Source of the DNA: a virus
Taxonomy: Duplodnaviria > Heunggongvirae > Uroviricota > Caudoviricetes
Strand: one strand, 5' to 3'
DNA: 42,961 nt
Virus record (IMG/VR): IMGVR_UViG_2531839476_000018
Below are positions 20,202 to 30,208 of the stretch, one piece after another. A model generated the notes under the pieces. That model was not told the DNA's origin, made no database searches, and was given only the letters and a program-made list of their open reading frames with translations. The position numbers and the translations under genes are program-made. Every line of letters starts with the position of its first letter. The stretch's first letter is position 1.

Positions 20202-21504
20202 CGGTAATGGATGCCCCGATGCCGGTTACGTCAGAATTTTCGCGCAAATCGGTCATAGCGGCTTTCAGTGTCATCAGACCATCACCCAGCGCTGTACTGA
20301 TTGCGTTGGTGGTGTTTAACGCCACCGTTGAGCGATCGACATCAGACATTTGCCAGAGCGGGTTAAACTCAAACGTGAAATCATCCGGGAGCGGCTTGCC
20401 AAGTTCCGAACGATGCATGATGTCCAGTATCCGACGCACCGGAAGACGTAAACGCCTCTCCTGCAACGAACTGATGCGGTCGTAATAGTTGGCAAGGTCT
20501 GCATCACCGGTAGAAAATCCTTTCGGGGACTGTCCGAACAACCGCACCAGTGGGATACCAACAGCGCCACTAATCTGTTCTGCAAACTGTGATAGGATGT
20601 CATCCAGACCACTGAAGCTGTACTGATGCGTTTCAAACTTATCCCGCGAGTCCATGAGCGTCATGCCTTCATTGCTCTGGAACTGTCGAATCAGGTCGAT
20701 ATTCTTCAGCAACGCTTCATACGCAGGACCACCAAGTGCGATAAGCTCGCGTAGCTTCTCCACGCTGTAGGTACGCAAATGCGCTTTGTAGACCAGCTGC
20801 GCCGCGCCGACAGTAGCGCTGTCGAACGCGGTAAGACGATCCCAGATACGCTCTACAACCGACATTCCCCATTCGTTCTCGGTCATCTTCTGCTGAAATG
20901 GCAGCGTGACGCCATCAAAGCGAATCAGTCGACTGTGATGAATGCGCCAGGCAGGAATTCCCGTTGCTGTGGTCACCACATCGTAAAACTCAGGTTTACC
21001 CAGGTCCGGCCCCATATCTTTAATGCGGCGGGTCAGTACCGGGTCAATCATCCAGCGGTCGAGCGGGAGAATCCCCTTAAACTTGCCCTTACCGATGGTT
21101 TCGGGTCGCAGCGGGGTCATTGGTGCCTGCCCCTCAATCATGATGAAACCCACCGCGCCGCCGTAGAGGCGCGACCATTTCAGCACGTCATTCAGCGCAT
21201 CCCAGATTTGCAACTCATCCAGTTGTGATTCGAGAATGCCGCGATCTTTTGCATCAATTTCCGAAGTGATGCGAATGCCTTTGCGGGTCATATCATCCGG
21301 GATAGCATCGACTGCTTCGCCGATGATCCAGGATGAACGATAGGACCATTCCACCAGCATGCGGTTACGACTGGTGAAATTAGCCCGGTAGGTGGATGCT
21401 GAGTGCTGGTTAGGTGTCTGCATCCCTACGCGGGCAATAAAATTCTCATAACCATCAGCTGTAGCCTGCGCAGTTCGCCGCAGGGCTTGTTTGTTTCGTG
21501 CCAT
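20038..21504 (-). CDS. Portal protein
   Basis: 488-aa ORF immediately downstream of the large terminase, portal-like in size and character. Confidence 0.8.
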   Translation of the reverse strand: MARNKQALRRTAQATADGYENFIARVGMQTPNQHSASTYRANFTSRNRMLVEWSYRSSWIIGEAVDAIPDDMTRKGIRITSEIDAKDRGILESQLDELQIWDALNDVLKWSRLYGGAVGFIMIEGQAPMTPLRPETIGKGKFKGILPLDRWMIDPVLTRRIKDMGPDLGKPEFYDVVTTATGIPAWRIHHSRLIRFDGVTLPFQQKMTENEWGMSVVERIWDRLTAFDSATVGAAQLVYKAHLRTYSVEKLRELIALGGPAYEALLKNIDLIRQFQSNEGMTLMDSRDKFETHQYSFSGLDDILSQFAEQISGAVGIPLVRLFGQSPKGFSTGDADLANYYDRISSLQERRLRLPVRRILDIMHRSELGKPLPDDFTFEFNPLWQMSDVDRSTVALNTTNAISTALGDGLMTLKAAMTDLRENSDVTGIGASITDEDIENAEDEAPPGIGEPDDEPQEPSGGNPLSNQPTQDSAGGRGHRKWSLRWFK

Positions 21505-23126
21505 CAGGCCTGTCTCCCTAGCAGCTCCCAGATGTTCAGGGCTGAATTCATTGGGGCATAGTTGATCATCACCGAGTCGGCAAGGTTTGGCGATCGGGTT
21601 CCATCAGGCTGTTTATCAATAACGATTTTTCCCACACCATTAATGGAATAGGTCGGCTGCGAAAGCTCGATGATGAGTTTATCTTTGAGTGCCATGCTAC
21701 TGCTGATTGAGATGATTTCGTCCGGGTTGTAAGCCATACCTTCAACCACGGCGCGCCAGGTATTCTGAAAAAGTTTACGTAACCGCCACCAGCTCTGGGC
21801 TTTGGCGTTAGCGAAGAAGTCCTTGTTCAGACGTGCTGCTTGCCCGTTGTCCCCGCGAACAGCTTCATCATCCGGATCAAATACCGCGCCACTACCTCGA
21901 AACGGTGTGGCAAGTATTGACGGTCGACGCGCAGCGTTACGCAGTTCGTTGATAGCGCGTGCATCGCCGCGAACGCCAGCGCCCAGCCCGTCCTCGTCAA
22001 AGCGAAACTCTTCGAGGTTGTCCTGTTCGCAAAAGCCGAAAACCTTCTCGACGGACTGATAAATGTCGCTGCCCACACCGGACCATTCCCGCACATTTTC
22101 CAGGAGGAAGCCATGACGGGTGGAAAAGGCATTTTTGTCCCTGCCTTCGTCGGCGACATCCATCGCGCCAAGTCGTTTGCCTGTTGGCTGGATACCCAGT
22201 TTGATATGCGCATCAACGGCAGCCTGTACCCATTCGGATGGAATCAGAACGCCTTCCGCTGATGCGCTGTAGTTCAGATCAAGTTCCTGTGCCACCACCA
22301 CCGGATTATCGATTTTCTCGCATTCCCTGCGATACCACTCTTCATCCTTGCGAGGATCATCCCGCCAGTGGAATGTGAATACCGGTATCTTCCCGCCATG
22401 ACGCTTCTGAGCGAACGGGTTAGCCATGCCGTTAACTGAACTCAGGTCGATACGGCAACGCGTCGTTTGTGACAACGCCGCATCAATCAGCAGAGGACGC
22501 TGAAGGAATGCAGCCTCATCAACCAGATAAAGCGTGGTACGGTCACCACGACCAATATTATCGCCAGCCTCGCCTTTGATAACGGCACCAGTTTCAGGAA
22601 ACTCAACACGCATATATGGCGCGTGCTTCTTCTCACTCCACGAACCGCGAAACTCTACAGGTAGCGTTTCCACGAACTTGCGTGCCTTCCAGAACAATGC
22701 TTTCGGGTCACCAGTGCTGTCGACGTATTCCTCTTTACGGGAGCCGAAACCGATAACCATTTCTTTGTTGAAGAGACAAAGCGAGCAGGCCAGTCCGATC
22801 GCGGTCCAACTGAGCCCCATTTCACGGGATTTTTCGGTAATACCATTCTCCCGATTGCCCCAGCGTTCCATAATCCAGTGGATCCACTCCTCCTGCTTAG
22901 GGAAGAGTAAAAACGGAATGGTCACCGGCAGGCCATAATCAATATTACGCGGGTCCGTTGTCATGCCCCAGTCGATGATGAACTGAGCCGGATTGGTTCG
23001 GTAAAACTGCTTCAATACGGGCAATATTTCAGGATTCTGGCGAATGCGCTGTAGGCGTTCCATCCGCCATTCAAAAACCATCTGGTAATCAGGATGTTTA
23101 AAATCGAAGGGGAATGGTAACGGCAT
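21504..23126 (-). CDS. Terminase large subunit
   Basis: 540 aa with an ATPase-like N-terminal half and a nuclease-like C-terminal half, between the small subunit and the portal. Confidence 0.85.
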
Positions 23127-23128
23127 AC

Positions 23129-23701
23129 TTAGCCCATCATTTTTCTATACGCCTCTGCAGCCTGCTCCGGCGTTAAGTTGGTAATTTCTGTTCTGACGGG
23201 TCCTCCATCAGCGCCAGTCACTTCATTTTTGACGTTGTCTTTAAACGCCTGAACAGAAACATGACGCCCAAGCAACTCAAGGTTTTTAACCTTATCAGGC
23301 CACTTAATCTTTTTAAGGATCCCGACCATTTCTCTGTCATCTCCTCGCCCCTCAAACATTTCAGCGAGGTTAAATCCACTCAGGTACCGACGCCACGATT
23401 CCGGCCACGCAGACAGAGGCTTAATACTTAAATCGTCCTCCAGGATGTCAGCCACATCGAGCCTGTCGATCTCAACCAGTCGCATCAGCACATAATTCGC
23501 ATCAATGCCCAGTTGATCAATACGCTCCTGCTTTAGCTCGTTAATACGGGCGCGTATCTCAGGTTTACCGTATAGTTCAGCCCCCGTAACATGTGCTCGA
23601 CTGGAGACGTAGCCTGCGCGAATAGCTGCTTGTGTAGCATTCAGATCGACAAGAAACTCGCGACAAAACACCTCGTGTTTTGCTTTCAGCTTCTTAGTCA
23701 T
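23129..23701 (-). CDS. Terminase small subunit
   Basis: 190-aa ORF immediately upstream of the large subunit, with an N-terminal HTH-like region. Confidence 0.65.
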
Positions 23702-25910: not shown

Positions 25911-26333
25911 TTATGCCGCCGAGCAGCTCCTACGCAAAGTCCTGATAGCCTGAGGCTTTGACTGAACCGACTGATCCATTTCGAGCACCACATCCAGCAT
26001 GGCTAAGCAACCGTCAATAAATCCCTCTGCCGCCTGAAGCCTCTTCAGAACGTGGGTGTGAGATACGCCGAGCTTCTCACCCATCGCCCGCACGGGCATG
26101 GCCTGGACGTAATGCCACTCAAGGAGCGTGCACAGATACGGATCTTTTTTCTTCAGGCAGCTCATAGCGGAGTTGATGATAAGACCGTCATTGTCACTGC
26201 ATTTCAGCCTTCCAGACTGCGTCGCGGGTAGCAGATTCTTAAACCCGGCTGCAACAGGAGGAAAGTAGACGCTACCACCTTCACTCGCTGCCCAGCCACC
26301 CCAGCGCTCTAAAACCTGTTGAATATTACGCAT
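25911..26333 (-). CDS. Q: Late-gene antiterminator Q (phage 82 / QuuD type)
   Basis: 140 aa beginning MRNIQQVLERWGGWAA and containing ...KKKDPYLCTLLEWHYV...; resembles the DLP12 QuuD protein as recalled; sits upstream of the lysis cassette. Confidence 0.75.
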   Translation of the reverse strand: MRNIQQVLERWGGWAASEGGSVYFPPVAAGFKNLLPATQSGRLKCSDNDGLIINSAMSCLKKKDPYLCTLLEWHYVQAMPVRAMGEKLGVSHTHVLKRLQAAEGFIDGCLAMLDVVLEMDQSVQSKPQAIRTLRRSCSAA

Positions 26334-26378
26334 AGCTCTGACCTCTACGTTTTGCTACGTTTGGAAATTTTCTACTAC

Positions 26379-26609
26379 TCAATACTCGTTGAATGTCAGG
26401 TGGCCGCTAACACTGACGTTTGGCCCGTCAGATAACACAAGCTGGAAATTGTCGTCGCAAACAGAGCAGCCGAGGTCAATAACTACCGTTTTGTCGTGTT
26501 TATGCGCTCGCATGGCGACATCGCGAATAAACACGCTGTTACTAGCGCAGCGTGGGCAGGTAATTTCGTTATTTCCGTCGATATGATTTTTTAATCCTGA
26601 AACTTTCAT
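26379..26609 (-). CDS. Small zinc-ribbon protein
   Basis: 76 aa with CPRC ... CSVC pairs spaced about 27 residues apart. Confidence 0.45.
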   Translation of the reverse strand: MKVSGLKNHIDGNNEITCPRCASNSVFIRDVAMRAHKHDKTVVIDLGCSVCDDNFQLVLSDGPNVSVSGHLTFNEY

Positions 26610-26631
26610 GTTGTTTACTCCAGCTAGTTAT

Positions 26632-26954
26632 TTGCAAATATTTGCAAGTTAATTTCCGGGTGACGGCTAGGTGACGCGTAATTACATATCCGTCACCTGC
26701 TGCAAAGCGCGCCATATAAAGCCTGAAGATGTTTTAGGTGACAGGTGACGGTTGATTTTAGTTCTATATATATATAAGCGATCGTATAATACCTAAAATA
26801 CACACTCTCGCGTATATAGTTTTAAATTCTGCCGTCACCTGTCACCTTTAGCACATTCCCCATTGTTTTATATATACTTTTTAAGGTGACGCTTAAGCGT
26901 TTTGCCGTCACCTAGCCGTCACCTTTTTACAATCCAGATTGCAAAATTTCGCAA
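26632..26954. repeat. Putative replication origin: iteron cluster around an AT-rich core, bracketed by TTGCAA-N4-TTGCAA palindromes
   Basis: About ten copies of the core GGTGAC(G/A)G / C(C/T)GTCACC in both orientations (26659-26751 and 26832-26923) flanking an AT-rich stretch (26760-26830, tatatatatata). Perfect palindrome ttgcaaatatttgcaa at 26632-26647 and imperfect ttgcaaaatttcgcaa at 26939-26954. Adjacent to the primase-type gene. Confidence 0.6.
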
Positions 26955-29188
26955 GATTTATATATTTCGCGCAATTCTTCGTTGCTGAAATCGTTATTTT
27001 TTACAAGAATCCAAATCCTATATACAAACCCGTCAATTTTTACGCGTACGGGTTCCCGCTTTGTTCTTTCTTTCAAAATGCGAGTAATATGCTTCTGGTT
27101 AATTTCTACATCCATTCCTGCTTCTGCCAGTATTGCGTTAACAATTTGTTGATAAGTCATTGCTGGCACAGGCGGATTATCCAGGATTTCAATAAGAGCA
27201 GCCTCCACATCGCTCTTATTGCTTTCAATCATCAGAAGGCGTTCTTTCGTCTCGGGGGCGCGCTGCCAGTTAAAGCGAGACAGGTCAACGCCCATTAGAT
27301 ACCAGTACACCTGGGCGATAAAGTCGCTGTCGCTTAGCGCACCGTACAGGCTGGCGTAATGCTCTTCAGTTGCGGCGAAGTCAGGGCCCCCCAGCACAGC
27401 TATACGTCGGTCTTCCTCTGGCAGCGCCAGCGCATCAAAGTGGTTGGTGTAGAACAGAAAGCCGGTGTATATATCCATCGTTTTTTTGCTGCCATATTTG
27501 CGGTTCACTTCAAACCGTGGTTCTGTCAGCACGTCACGGATCTTATCGTTCACCTCATACCGCTTATCGTTTTCGCGCACCTCGTCAATGGTGCATAGAA
27601 GTGTATTGTACAGATAGTCATGGAACTGGTTATCGCACAGGATCTTCATGCGAGTACGAGCACAGTTCCACGGGCCAAGCACGCGCTCCATTAACTGACT
27701 GACCCATCCTCTGCCCGTACCATGTGCGGTAGCCACATGCAGAATAGAAATCGGGCATCGACGCTCCGGACGCTGAACCATCCACCCCAGACGGGCGATG
27801 AAAAACTCGCGCTGCCAGGCATCAGGTACCAGATACGCCATATGATTAAGGAACGTGGACACCTTACTTGTATCCGCTGTACGTGGATGCTCAGGCATAT
27901 AAAATTCGTTTATCTCAAACCGCCCGTCGAAACGCTCGATAATACGTCCCGCACCGGGCTTATAGCCTGTCGTCTCAGCAATCTTCTTATGCCGATGCTC
28001 TATCCACCGTTTGGTTGCGGGAGTTGGTTGTCCTTTCCCTTCTGGCGGGAACTGGTAAGGCGCCATCAGGTTTTTGAACGACTTCATATCCATCATGCAC
28101 TGATATGGCGGTCGGCTAAGATCACATACCTGGTCACCCTCGATGACGTAGATAAAGCGTTCCAGAAAATGAGCTGTCATATCTGTATTAATATCGGTAA
28201 ATTCAGGCTTATCGCCATCTTCAGCCACCGTGAGATCTTCGAACAGGGATTGCGTATAGCCGTAGCCTTCCAGCCAGTCGGCATCAGTAAGCCCCGCATC
28301 GGTGTTGTGCATGCTTTTAAAATGTCCCTGTTCAAATCCCCCCGTCCCTTTTGGGAAATACTTAATGGATGTTTCGCTGCAACCGTTGCTGTATTCTGAC
28401 TCATCCCGAAACGGTTTCAGATTGCGGGAACCATCAGAGCTGACTGACAGAGTCCACCCGTTCGCGTCAAGCCAGTCGGCGACATCATCTGTCGCGGAAG
28501 GATCAACACAGGAAAGGTCACGCTGACGTCCTGCACCTGCGGTATAGCTGTCTTTCACGGGTAAGTTATCCGCCAGACGCTGCCACAGGCTTTCGAGCTG
28601 TTCAGATGTAATTTTCAGAGGTTCGCCGGGCAAACCGCTGTCCCACTGAATACGTTCGCCTGCCGGATGGGTACCACAAGCCACAAACTGCTGGCCCTTA
28701 GCGAGCAGCTCTATTTGTTTGTTTTCGCCTTCCAGGCGGTGACCACGTTTACGGTAGTCGCCATCAACAGCAATCAGGTACAGGCATTTATGACTGTCAG
28801 CCCGCCAGCGACGTGGCGGAAGTTCCCCCAGGCATGATAGGATAATATTGCGTACGATCTCCTGCATCCCGGCGTCATTGATATCGCAGTCCAGAGCCAC
28901 CACCCCGTCGCCAGTACGAACGCAAATACCGTAATCGGGTTCGTTCGACCACCGGGCAAAATCGTTTTCCGTAACAACATAGTTAGCCCAGTCGGGGATA
29001 CCAACAACCTTACGTTGGCCATTGTAGCGACTGGGGGTTTTGCCGAAATTATGAGACAGCTTGCTATTAGGCGACAGTTCTGCACAGGGATTGGACACCA
29101 CAGGTAAAAGCCTGTCTGTCATCCCCAACACCAGATCGAAGTGGAACCACTCATCGGGCGTAGCTCCCCATGGTTTGTTATCAGACAT
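26927..29188 (-). CDS. Replication protein, primase-polymerase type with a large C-terminal domain (P4 alpha-like architecture)
   Basis: 753-aa ORF directly downstream of the cro-like gene and upstream of the iteron cluster; N-terminal region has a prim-pol-like character (…GICVRTGDGVVALDCDINDAG…). No GxxxxGK[ST] P-loop was seen by eye. Confidence 0.65.
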   Translation of the reverse strand: MSDNKPWGATPDEWFHFDLVLGMTDRLLPVVSNPCAELSPNSKLSHNFGKTPSRYNGQRKVVGIPDWANYVVTENDFARWSNEPDYGICVRTGDGVVALDCDINDAGMQEIVRNIILSCLGELPPRRWRADSHKCLYLIAVDGDYRKRGHRLEGENKQIELLAKGQQFVACGTHPAGERIQWDSGLPGEPLKITSEQLESLWQRLADNLPVKDSYTAGAGRQRDLSCVDPSATDDVADWLDANGWTLSVSSDGSRNLKPFRDESEYSNGCSETSIKYFPKGTGGFEQGHFKSMHNTDAGLTDADWLEGYGYTQSLFEDLTVAEDGDKPEFTDINTDMTAHFLERFIYVIEGDQVCDLSRPPYQCMMDMKSFKNLMAPYQFPPEGKGQPTPATKRWIEHRHKKIAETTGYKPGAGRIIERFDGRFEINEFYMPEHPRTADTSKVSTFLNHMAYLVPDAWQREFFIARLGWMVQRPERRCPISILHVATAHGTGRGWVSQLMERVLGPWNCARTRMKILCDNQFHDYLYNTLLCTIDEVRENDKRYEVNDKIRDVLTEPRFEVNRKYGSKKTMDIYTGFLFYTNHFDALALPEEDRRIAVLGGPDFAATEEHYASLYGALSDSDFIAQVYWYLMGVDLSRFNWQRAPETKERLLMIESNKSDVEAALIEILDNPPVPAMTYQQIVNAILAEAGMDVEINQKHITRILKERTKREPVRVKIDGFVYRIWILVKNNDFSNEELREIYKSCEILQSGL

Positions 29189-29191
29189 GGG

Positions 29192-29392
29192 TTACGCCTT
29201 TTGTCTAGCTGTCACTTCCTGAAAAAGCTTTTCTATCGCACGTACTGTAGAAAAGCGAGGGTCAGAATGAACCCCGGTGAGAAGCCGACTAATAGAAGAC
29301 TGCTTCACGCCTGCAATTTCGGCAATTTGGTTTTGGGTATACCCTGAATCAATCAAGCTTTTGACCATCTCTTGTGGTGTTAGTCCGGACAT
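29192..29392 (-). CDS. cro: Cro-like HTH regulator
   Basis: 66 aa with HTH TQNQIAEIAGVKQSSISRLL; divergent from cI; GGAG ribosome-binding site; first gene of the early-right operon. Confidence 0.65.
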   Translation of the reverse strand: MSGLTPQEMVKSLIDSGYTQNQIAEIAGVKQSSISRLLTGVHSDPRFSTVRAIEKLFQEVTARQKA

Positions 29393-29533: not shown

Positions 29534-30208
29534 ATGATTGATACTACCGATATCCTTTCTCAAAACATCAAGTACCTGATGGACAAAACCAAGATAAGCT
29601 CGATAACTGAGCTGGCACGTCGGTTACAGCTGAACCAACCAACGCTACACAGGCTGGTATCAGGAGAGGTGAAAGATCCGAAATACGCAACGTTAAAGCA
29701 GATCGCCGACTACTTCCACGTGTCACCAATAGACCTGGCAGAAAGGAGCCTTCAAGAAATGGAGAAAGAGGACGCGACAGGTATAAAAACGTATATTTCT
29801 CTTAGGTTTAATAAAGTACCTGTTTTGGGAAACACTCAGCTAGGCGTTGGAGGACTTTGGAGCGACACCCAATATTCAGTAGGTAGCAGTGATGGTTTCA
29901 TATACTGGCCGACAAAGGATGAAGATGCATACGCCCTGAAATGTGTTGGTGATTCAATGATGCCTAGAATCAAAGAGGGTGAGTTCGTAATCGTCGAACC
30001 CAACCACGACTACACTCCTGGTGATGAAGTACTTGTGGTTACCCGGGACGGTGAGGTCATGGTTAAAACCTTCTTGTTCGAACGCGATGGCCTGTTCCAT
30101 CTAATGTCTGTAAATGAAGATCATCCACCAGTCAGAGTACCACGCGAAAACATTGAAAAAATCCATTACGTGGCGGGGATCGCCAAATCCGCGCTACGCA
30201 TGTACTAA
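29534..30208 (+). CDS. cI: CI-type repressor (HTH plus LexA-like S24 autopeptidase domain)
   Basis: 224 aa; N-terminal HTH; C-terminal domain with GDSMMP (catalytic Ser) and a downstream Lys (EVMVKTF), as in lambda cI / LexA. Confidence 0.85.
   Translation: MIDTTDILSQNIKYLMDKTKISSITELARRLQLNQPTLHRLVSGEVKDPKYATLKQIADYFHVSPIDLAERSLQEMEKEDATGIKTYISLRFNKVPVLGNTQLGVGGLWSDTQYSVGSSDGFIYWPTKDEDAYALKCVGDSMMPRIKEGEFVIVEPNHDYTPGDEVLVVTRDGEVMVKTFLFERDGLFHLMSVNEDHPPVRVPRENIEKIHYVAGIAKSALRMY

Follow-up and report, generated by a model that had tools for sequence, protein, structure and literature searches.

The segment at 26659-26923 of the DNA analysed here (the window, 42,961 bp in all) is very probably the vegetative replication origin of a lambdoid-type E. 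coli prophage, with the 753-aa protein encoded beside it as the initiator, as judged from comparative sequence analysis. Origins of this type are already known from SaPI and PICI satellites; here the type is found in a full-size phage. The core of the original prediction, iterons around an easily opened centre that lie directly 3' of a primase-type gene and are bound by its product, is strongly supported by the comparative evidence, because the layout is conserved, the 8-mer and the wing of the protein change together, and the SaPI and EcCICFT073 modules are proven origins. This reading would assign an origin and an initiator to the PrimPol-DUF5906-winged helix module, which is widespread in enterobacterial temperate phages. 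Our literature search turned up no experimental study of the element itself or of any protein in this family.

A mirror-symmetric array of ten iterons

The motif GGTGACRG occurs 13 times in the window, compared with 2.2 copies expected from shuffled sequences, and eight of the 13 lie within 26659-26923. When the motif was relaxed to GGTGAC[AG][GC], 10 of the 19 window copies were packed into one 281-bp span, for which the density outside predicts 0.06 copies (Poisson P ~1e-19); the maximum per 281-bp span in Markov simulations (n=200) was two. These ten copies occupy 265 bp, again with an expectation of ~0.06. All five window copies of the perfect 9-mer AGGTGACGG fall within the cluster, while outlying copies of GGTGACGG are single, lie within coding sequence and lack the 5' A. 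No second (crr-like) iteron cluster was found in the 42,961-bp window. The genome-wide motif count suggested with the original prediction thus revealed enrichment, and its description of about ten 8-bp copies in both orientations flanking an AT-rich stretch was borne out by ten copies, five on either side of a centre of 26% G+C.

The ten sites have exact two-fold symmetry about position 26791. Midpoints of the mirrored pairs fall at 26791.0-26791.5, and the centre-to-centre distances, in order of position, are 11, 20, 47, 7, 88, 7, 46, 20 and 11 (Table 1). This exact mirror symmetry had gone unnoticed in the original prediction. The expected primase-type gene is indeed directly beside the array, with 3 nt separating the end of the first iteron from its stop codon.

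Table 1. Coordinates of the iterons and associated features in the window
Feature	Position	Strand	Remark
Iteron 1, GGTGACGG	26916..26923	- (gene sense)	3 nt past the stop codon
Iteron 2, GGTGACGG	26905..26912	-	11 bp from iteron 1
Iteron 3, GGTGACGC	26885..26892	+	Opposite orientation to iterons 1-2; 20 bp from iteron 2
Iteron 4, GGTGACAG	26839..26846	-	Outer member of the overlapping inner pair
Iteron 5, GGTGACGG	26832..26839	-	7 bp from iteron 4; borders the centre
Centre, presumed opening and priming zone	26752..26831	.	80 bp, 26% G+C
Iteron 6, GGTGACGG	26744..26751	+	Mirrors iteron 5
Iteron 7, GGTGACAG	26737..26744	+	Mirrors iteron 4
Iteron 8, GGTGACGG	26690..26697	-	Mirrors iteron 3
Iteron 9, GGTGACGC	26670..26677	+	Mirrors iteron 2
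Iteron 10, GGTGACGG	26659..26666	+	Mirrors iteron 1
Left palindrome TTGCAAATATTTGCAA, perfect	26632..26647	.	Between the array and a 76-aa ORF
Right quasi-palindrome TTGCAAAATTTCGCAA	26939..26954	.	Inside the 753-aa CDS, codons C-E-I-L-Q
Gene of the 753-aa putative initiator	26927..29188	-	PrimPol + DUF5906/SF3 + winged helix
Predicted recognition helix QKHITRILKERT and beta-hairpin wing VRVKI-DG-FVYRIWI	26984..27097	-	Codons 698-735

The 80-bp centre contains (TA)6 (TATATATATATA, 26765-26776) and the block CTCTCGCGTATATA (26805-26818; TATATACGCGAGAG in gene sense), which is conserved in eight of 11 aligned loci. Alternating purine-pyrimidine runs of 22-50 nt are present in the centres of relatives. 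Those of Xenorhabdus reach 44-50 nt, G+C included, and VapE-type related modules carry the alternating tract CGCGCGTGCGCGCGT. The centre in the window is only modestly unusual, in that its longest alternating run, 12 nt, is just as long as the longest in control windows. Over the whole window, GC skew showed no inflection at the array, a measure that is uninformative for phages; locally, the skew merely mirrors iteron orientation.

The adjoining gene and its operon

The 753-aa protein combines a PrimPol (AEP) primase domain (aa 75-185), a DUF5906/SF3 helicase core (aa 488-595) and a C-terminal winged helix (~aa 676-735) that is followed by a terminal helix. A Pfam search of the protein returned Prim-Pol (PF09250) and no Toprim domain. 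The PrimPol-DUF5906-winged helix protein has so far been annotated only as a hypothetical or DUF5906 protein. The recognition helix and wing were assigned from the secondary structure of a model of the protein, and codons 698-735 are the segment that varies with iteron class. The Walker A lysine is replaced by arginine (GTGRGW; R493 in the window protein) in 50 of the 50 DUF5906-type homologues retrieved; NrS-1 has GTGKG. In many P-loop ATPases this lysine-to-arginine change cripples hydrolysis. Because of it, self-loading of a helicase is a less certain step than binding; recruitment of a helicase from the host may take its place.

No other replication gene could be identified between the repressor and Q, and the early rightward operon runs cro, putative initiator, array, small ORF, Q. 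The array lies inside the operon, so early transcription would pass through the proposed origin. A promoter and terminator scan found no terminator in the array, and the sole promoter-like site, which is on the + strand, was inside the end of the gene.

The location of the array, after the initiator gene and ahead of Q, the antiterminator gene on the same strand, would also suit a transcriptional control site at which the winged helix or another protein blocks or times read-through into the small ORF and Q. Ten occupied sites could block RNA polymerase, and the co-variation of iteron and protein described below speaks to binding by the neighbouring protein but is silent on what the binding does. 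We nevertheless consider a transcriptional control site very improbable as the explanation. Symmetry and an easily opened centre 3' of an SF3 primase-helicase gene make up the proven layout of SaPI/PICI origins (PMC9371898, PMC6092414), and a primase-helicase of its own obliges a phage to have an origin to match, for which the window has no other iteron cluster. A role in gating Q could exist alongside that of an origin.

Conservation of the layout at homologous loci

We compared the array with those beside homologous genes. Some 36 full-length homologues (from at least eight genera, plus viral contigs) share the ten sites with the window, along with their order, orientation and spacing, and in every full-length homologue examined the gene is followed by a ~315-bp gap with this layout. 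Eleven loci from seven genera could be aligned collinearly; none had more or fewer than ten sites, order and orientation did not vary, and the flank spacings were 10-12, 20, 46-48 and 7 bp. Scans of these 11 origins for DnaA, IHF and Fis sites and for GATC revealed nothing conserved.

The iteron itself comes in lineage-specific 8-mers (GGTGACGG, GGTGACAG, GGTGTCAG, GGTAACAG, GGTGGCAG and GGTTGCAG). Positions 1-3, 6 and 8 of the iteron are fixed, and positions 4, 5 and 7 switch in all copies of a locus together. Close relatives include the vB_EcoM-606R2 group, four isolated phages that carry the 753-aa gene at 99.6% identity and match 26300-27300 with 98.1% identity over 73% of its length; the origin region of vB_EcoM-606R2 itself (L001) is nearly identical to that of the window. 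Since isolated phages carry the gene, the module is compatible with a viable phage.

Iteron class and wing change together

Among near-identical backbones, the iteron class switches together with aa 703-745. Of the 753 residues in the protein of locus L027, 15 differ from the window protein, and 13 of these fall in aa 713-745. At the DNA level L027 is 100% identical to the window up to ~codon 700 and then 60-85% identical through the gene end and origin, and all ten of its iterons are GGTGGCAG. L031 and L043 differ from the window protein at 16-17 residues, 14 of which lie in the aa 701-750 bin, and use the iteron GGTAACAG. Their wing motif (GMGYRFW) and iteron are those of Serratia L003, which is only 69% identical overall. 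Pairs with backbones at least 95% identical yet different iterons were found on three separate backbones. A larger exchange is seen in L019, where a PrimPol half 97% identical to that of the window is joined to a VapE helicase and a different C-terminal domain; the repeats there (TTACTCAACC) are unrelated in sequence but have the same position and layout.

These exchanges provide strong indirect support for specific reading of the cognate iterons by the winged helix. The wing is not a one-to-one code, because GGTGGCAG is paired with at least five different wing variants, and a simple code of that kind was rejected. What makes the finding most useful is the set of natural cassette swaps: ~13 residues of one beta-hairpin separate proteins that use GGTGACGG, GGTGGCAG or GGTAACAG. 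The swap series is ready-made material on how a winged helix reads DNA, and it could yield primase/origin pairs that do not cross-react, as in conditionally replicating delivery vectors (bioRxiv 10.1101/2022.09.30.509847).

The co-variation also bears on whether the array might be a partition (centromere-like) or packaging (pac/cos) site. The array resembles the centromeres of plasmids and prophages, and some pac sites, in being a cluster of short repeats in both orientations. However, no ParA/ParB-type gene adjoins the array, the terminase genes (21504-23701) are ~3-5 kb away, and the repeat class tracks the C-terminal domain of the primase-helicase rather than a packaging or partition gene. 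A partition or packaging site is thus extremely improbable.

Base pairing alone is unlikely to account for the repeats

Inverted repeats that change in concert would also preserve base pairing, and a single strand of the region folds as one long hairpin (-55.6 kcal/mol, z = -7.7 against shuffles). The repeats might accordingly be the stems of a folded nucleic acid, either a hairpin in ssDNA or early RNA or a cruciform, which would act as a stem-loop origin, a terminator or a processing site. A large stem-loop located 3' of the gene for an AEP+SF3+winged-helix protein has been put forward as the origin of pRN1 and of phage BIP-1 (PMC4234260). Searched at a permissive threshold, Rfam returned only sub-threshold, hairpin-like microRNA-precursor hits; these were caused by the long inverted repeat, and a known RNA family was rejected.

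We reasoned that base pairing leaves stems free to evolve singly. Yet a single 8-mer recurs in all five 'stems' of a locus, the stems switch together across six iteron classes, and the direct-repeat copies likewise change in concert. Complementarity between the arms was 90-100% at the iterons in 10 of 11 loci (the exception, L005, gave 62%, with site calling shifted there), as compared with 46-61% elsewhere in the arms, and this test rejected a hairpin-only reading. Moreover, the iteron switch coincides with wing substitutions in the neighbouring protein, and no terminator-like site was found in the region. We conclude that stems as the reason for the repeats are very unlikely. A folded structure is excluded only as the sole explanation, because cruciform extrusion could assist a protein-driven origin.

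A model for initiation

We infer binding, oligomer loading, melting, priming and directionality for the proposed origin as follows. The C-terminal winged helix would read the 8-bp GGTGAC(G/A)(G/C), mainly with its beta-hairpin wing and the last part of the recognition helix (aa ~698-735). The array would act as two mirror-image half-origins, each made up of two direct, one inverted and two overlapping iterons, and each half would nucleate an SF3-type helicase oligomer, presumably a hexamer, on its own side of the centre. The 80-bp A+T-rich centre with its alternating purine-pyrimidine sequence would then open, primers would be laid by the PrimPol domain of the initiator itself, and extension of these by a host polymerase would result in bidirectional replication.

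A variant in which supercoiling, not ATP-driven melting, opens the alternating tract, which is prone to form Z-DNA or a cruciform, and two initiator assemblies capture the opened DNA seems unlikely to us. It would set this origin family apart from SaPI, PICI and P4 origins in the way DNA is opened. We propose it because the conserved core of the family would be the alternating tract, not a generic A+T-rich unwinding element, and because the Walker A arginine is invariant. As part of this variant, occupancy of the array might also time late gene expression, given the place of the array after the initiator gene and ahead of Q.

Relation to satellite origins

The closest parallels to the proposed origin are in SaPIs and PICIs. 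In SaPIs, a C-terminal winged helix is the part of Rep that binds the iterons, of which 6-12 flank an AT-rich centre directly 3' of rep (PMC9371898). [quoted passage not shown] In its origin sequence we found 11 GGTAGAYAG sites in a 2-1-3 | 2-1-2 layout within a 288-bp gap, preceded by a D5_N+DUF5906+Pox_D5 gene. As in these elements, the array of the window and of all homologues is immediately 3' of the initiator gene, two opposed sets of short iterons (5+5 and mirrored in the window) surround an easily melted centre, and the candidate initiator joins an SF3/DUF5906-type helicase to a primase and a C-terminal winged helix. Allelic specificities are a further feature of the SaPI/PICI origins (PMC9371898, PMC6092414) that the window family probably shares.

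There are also clear differences. Whereas satellites span 10-15 kb, the window and its relatives are temperate phages of full size, ~42.7 kb, that encode the cI repressor, cro, Q and the lysis and terminase proteins. They do not qualify as PICIs, which are small, helper-dependent islands lacking a full set of virion genes. Because of this, the match is one of origin type and not of element class. The primase of the window protein is a PrimPol (AEP), whereas that of EcCICFT073 is of the D5_N type, and BLASTP between the window protein and EcCICFT073 Pri-Rep detected no similarity, the shared part being the Pfam DUF5906 core only. Iteron polarity relative to the centre is reversed between the two, and the Walker A motif of the window protein has arginine in place of lysine. 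An iteron/centre/iteron origin 3' of the initiator, described as a hallmark of PICI satellites, would thus serve full-size phages as well.

Comparison with other replication modules

[quoted passage not shown] The window protein likewise has primase, SF3 helicase and C-terminal winged helix in one polypeptide, next to octamer iterons in both orientations. However, it is a PrimPol protein without Toprim, unlike the DnaG/Toprim-like primase of P4, and P4 needs crr several kb away, while the window has no second cluster. P4 ori is not known to lie directly 3' of alpha or to have a strict ten-site mirror layout. The likeness to P4 alpha ori/crr in the original prediction accordingly holds for the general logic, but not for the primase class or the second cluster. 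P4 alpha and its cis site are mentioned in PMC6092414.

The domain order AEP PrimPol, SF3 helicase and winged helix is that of pRN1 ORF904. An essential cis element with dyad symmetry lies just 3' of the pRN1 gene; it is described as a ~100-nt stem-loop conserved in its structure but not in any repeated motif, and it has no defined iterons (PMC4234260). In the array of the window, pairing between the arms is confined to the iterons, and the repeat varies in step with the wing of the protein. The array has hairpin potential, but the confinement of arm complementarity to the iterons points to a dyad of binding sites.

In lambda, ori is inside the O gene and has four direct 19-bp iterons, and O recruits host DnaB via P. 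The window resembles lambda in having an early-operon module between cro and Q, with iterons by an A+T-rich region and transcription through it. Unlike in lambda, the proposed origin is intergenic and mirror-symmetric and its initiator has primase and helicase domains of its own; no O- or P-like gene was found between cro and Q of the window.

The large T antigen of SV40 and polyomavirus and papillomavirus E1 are SF3 initiators with a separate origin-binding domain, which assemble head-to-head double hexamers on short sites set in inverted groups around the opening zone. Their likeness to the window is an analogy of layout only, as the origin-binding domains are unrelated, the viruses are eukaryotic and the sites far fewer.

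Stx phages have a lambdoid early-operon replication region (PMC7466680), and in those of type Eru10 only a PF09250 primase-polymerase protein and Q lie between cI and stx (PMC8951638). The gene order of Eru10 is that of the window, a likeness in gene content and order; the catalogue in PMC8951638 describes no origin, and the PrimPol-DUF5906 module is not covered in the paper on Eru replication types (PMC8044961).

Flanking palindromes

Two palindromes, one perfect (left) and one imperfect (right), had been described as bracketing the array and as possible sites for a second protein. Both are present, and the left one is perfect. A role as bracketing sites for a second protein found no support, since the right palindrome is coding sequence and the left one is perfect only with the 76-aa downstream gene (in the window and L021). 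L021 has the same downstream ORF as the window and an identical left-palindrome core but different iterons, and the palindrome is degenerate in L001 and L023, where other downstream genes follow. The left palindrome probably belongs to the cassette of the downstream gene and not to the origin. The right quasi-palindrome, close to the stop codon at 26927-26929, encodes the conserved C-terminal C-E-(K/I)-L-Q, of which C746, E747 and L749 are nearly invariant among homologues.

A mirror-symmetric iteron cluster follows a putative initiator gene

The window represents a lambdoid-type temperate phage of E. coli, whose nearest sequenced relatives are four phages of ~33-43 kb (the vB_EcoM-606R2 group); prophages resembling it are present in 45 complete E. 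coli genomes. Among the genes annotated between its repressor and Q, Pfam assignments included, there is no second replication gene beside that of the proposed initiator, a 753-aa protein.

Coordinates of features in the window and of the EcCICFT073 origin
Feature	Position	Strand
cI-like repressor	29534-30208	+
cro-like gene	29192-29392	-
753-aa gene	26927-29188	-
PrimPol N-terminal half	28200-29188	-
Walker A motif (codons 488-493 region)	27709-27726	-
Promoter-like match	26939-26966	+
Right palindrome	26939-26954	
Non-coding gap	about 26610-26926	
Iteron cluster	26659-26923	
Centre of cluster	26752-26831	
Asymmetric block	26805-26818	
Left palindrome	26632-26647	
76-aa ORF	26379-26609	-
Q antiterminator	25911-26333	-
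Lysis and terminase genes	beyond Q	-
EcCICFT073 origin (E. coli CFT073)	L104 18997-19284 = NC_004431.1 1383996-1384283	

The original prediction was of an iteron origin, with about ten repeats in both orientations, bound by the primase-type protein; the repeats are borne out by counting. The window has 13 copies of GGTGACRG where 2.2 are expected, and eight of them fall inside the cluster; two GGTGACGC variants bring the total to ten sites in 265 bp, where the density outside the cluster predicts 0.06. Simulations never placed more than two sites in a comparable span, and all five perfect 9-mers (AGGTGACGG) lie inside. A feature absent from that prediction is the exact mirror arrangement: the midpoints of paired sites fall at 26791.0-26791.5, and spacings along the cluster are 11, 20, 47, 7, 88, 7, 46, 20 and 11. 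Read in the gene sense, two direct sites, one inverted site and two overlapping direct sites precede an 80-bp centre (26% G+C), followed by their mirror image. The stop codon of the 753-aa gene is 3 nt from the end of the first site.

Conservation of the element

Homologues came from genomes, assemblies and viral contigs. In each full-length homologue of the DUF5906 type, 8-10 copies of GGTnnCnG lie no more than 330 bp past the stop codon. Eleven loci, from Escherichia, Salmonella, Enterobacter, Erwinia, Izhakiella, Serratia, Arsenophonus and Xenorhabdus, are collinear over the whole element, all with ten sites of matching order and orientation and with flank spacings of 10-12, 20, 46-48 and 7 bp. 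The repeats are lineage-specific (GGTGACGG, GGTGACAG, GGTGTCAG, GGTAACAG, GGTGGCAG, GGTTGCAG; TGACACAG in Limnobaculum, whose protein is 46% identical), and one variant occupies nearly all copies within a locus. Iteron positions 1-3, 6 and 8 are fixed; 4, 5 and 7 vary in concert. Such concerted change of ten dispersed copies would need a common trans-acting reader, since base pairing alone would not make five mirror pairs share one sequence. A purely structural hairpin, as in the pRN1 stem-loop model (PMC4234260), is very unlikely as the sole explanation: the arms are 90-100% complementary at the iterons in 10 of 11 loci (62% in L005, where site calling is shifted) and 46-61% elsewhere, and the sites share an 8-mer. 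Cruciform extrusion could still assist.

In three loci the initiator frame is broken, the ORF read from the start being 135-191 aa long. L010 (Erwinia tracheiphila) keeps all ten iterons, whereas in L011 and L017 (Arsenophonus endosymbiont) just the inner pairs survive; either prophage decay or indels from assembly could explain these loci.

Long alternating purine-pyrimidine runs mark the centre of these origins (the window, L006, L007, L019 and the regions downstream in L012-L102). Across 69 unique origins the run has a median length of 15 nt, and in 78% it is longer than that of every same-locus control window. The Xenorhabdus loci (L006, L007) have runs of up to 44-50 nt made of CA/CG/TA steps, and many VapE-type modules have CGCGCGTGCGCGCGT in the centre; the window holds only (TA)6 plus TATATACGCG. 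On the side of the centre nearer the gene, an asymmetric block (TATATACGCGAGAG when read with the gene) is kept in 8 of 11 aligned loci regardless of iteron class and could be a priming or opening signal. No DnaA, IHF or Fis site is conserved in the aligned origins, which fits a self-sufficient initiator.

Two palindromes had been proposed to bracket the cluster; we count neither as part of the origin. The right one lies within coding sequence, encoding a conserved C-E-(K/I)-L-Q. The left one (TTGCAAATATTTGCAA), about 25 nt upstream of the 76-aa ORF start, is perfect only where that ORF follows, namely in the window and in Enterobacter L021 (whose iterons differ). In vB_EcoM-606R2 and the Salmonella locus, which carry other genes there, it is degenerate, and in Xenorhabdus it is absent. 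Close phage relatives have an unrelated 96-aa gene in place of the ORF, with a mosaic junction at the left palindrome. A related motif, TTG-A-AAA--T---CAAATAAC, is retained in most enterobacterial loci. The 76-aa ORF has two CxxC pairs, is zinc-ribbon-like and has no match in Pfam or PHROG. The region has a single promoter-like match (TTGCAA-16-TATATT, 9/12), which overlaps this right, coding quasi-palindrome; transcription from it would run antisense into the initiator gene's 3' end.

Natural swaps link iteron specificity to the C terminus of the putative initiator

In the 753-aa protein, Pfam assigns residues 75-185 to a PrimPol domain (archaeo-eukaryotic primase) and residues 488-595 to the DUF5906 core of SF3 helicases. 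By sequence, its sole relative with a solved structure is the phage NrS-1 primase-polymerase, matched in the helicase region (profile, E 5e-19). In an AlphaFold2 model (pLDDT 82), residues 600-753 form a C-terminal strand-helix-helix-hairpin unit, then a terminal helix, so primase, helicase-type ATPase and DNA-binding domain are combined in one polypeptide. Its Walker A motif is HGTGRGW (R493). GTGRGW, with arginine for the Walker A lysine, occurs in 50 of 50 DUF5906-type homologues retrieved, compared with GTGKG in NrS-1 and canonical GK[ST] in VapE-type relatives and the EcCICFT073 Pri-Rep. DUF5906-type homologues do conserve the Walker B, sensor and arginine-finger positions; given the Walker A arginine, helicase action is the weakest step of the proposed mechanism. 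The PrimPol half is common to DUF5906-type and VapE-type proteins, at up to 97% identity (L019/L020 and L055-L102 against the window), and each helicase type is paired with an iteron family of its own (GTTGAGTA, GGAACCAC, GTACCAAC, GTAACCAC, TGGTAACA, GTTGTCTA). The initiator is itself a mosaic whose primase, helicase and DNA-binding parts are exchangeable.

The main value of the finding is a clean natural specificity series. Over 753 residues the L027 protein shows 15 differences from that of the window, 13 lying in 713-745; its DNA is identical up to about codon 700, then 60-85% identical through the origin, and its iterons are GGTGGCAG (10/10). L031 and L043 show 16-17 differences, 14 in the aa 701-750 bin, and have GGTAACAG; their wing motif, GMGYRFW, also accompanies GGTAACAG in L003 of Serratia, a locus whose protein has only 69% overall identity. 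Comparable exchanges occur in Salmonella-type and Izhakiella-type backbones, and proteins with GGTGACGG or GGTGTCAG can be six hairpin residues apart in that segment (GFVYRIWILVKNN vs GFTNRFWLLEKNR). L019 combines a 97% identical PrimPol half with a VapE-type helicase and a different C-terminal domain; its repeats (TTACTCAACC) are unrelated to the window iterons, yet have the same place and layout. The swap loci and L019 indicate that specificity tracks the last ~50 residues, modelled as the beta-hairpin wing together with the end of the recognition helix, and that this segment travels with the origin as a single cassette. As judged from this covariation, they show protein and sites to be a cognate pair. 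A simple wing-iteron code is ruled out, as GGTGGCAG is found with several wing variants.

Relation to known origins

The pairing in the original prediction is supported by these swaps; replication function is suggested by layout and precedent. The cluster is probably an origin, considering its inverted half-arrays, easily opened centre and position directly 3' of the only replication gene between repressor and Q. The Rep proteins of SaPIs use their C-terminal winged helix to bind 6-12 iterons, which immediately follow rep and surround an AT-rich centre; two hexamers are presumed to load there (PMC9371898). [quoted passage not shown] That the array between the early genes and Q is purely regulatory is improbable, as the phage would be left without an origin for its own primase-helicase, and a partition or packaging site, for which gene context offers no support, is less probable still.

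As an origin, the cluster matches the SaPI/PICI type in layout and logic and the pRN1/NrS-1 type in protein architecture. The proposed P4-like logic holds as a looser analogue: the P4 primase is of another class, and crr has no equivalent here. The EcCICFT073 origin has eleven GGTAGAYAG sites, resembling GGTGACAG plus one extra base, in a 288-bp gap after a D5_N+DUF5906+Pox_D5 gene; its 2-1-3 / 2-1-2 layout is very like the 2-1-2 / 2-1-2 of the window. The two initiators have only the DUF5906 core in common, and BLASTP found no similarity between them. The gene arrangement matches the 'Eru10' type of Stx phages, which is listed without any origin described (PMC8951638), and our literature search found no paper describing the origin reported here. 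The window element is not a PICI. Its carriers are viable phages of full size, so the claim that no other bacterial replicon has this origin organisation (PMC6092414) needs qualifying.
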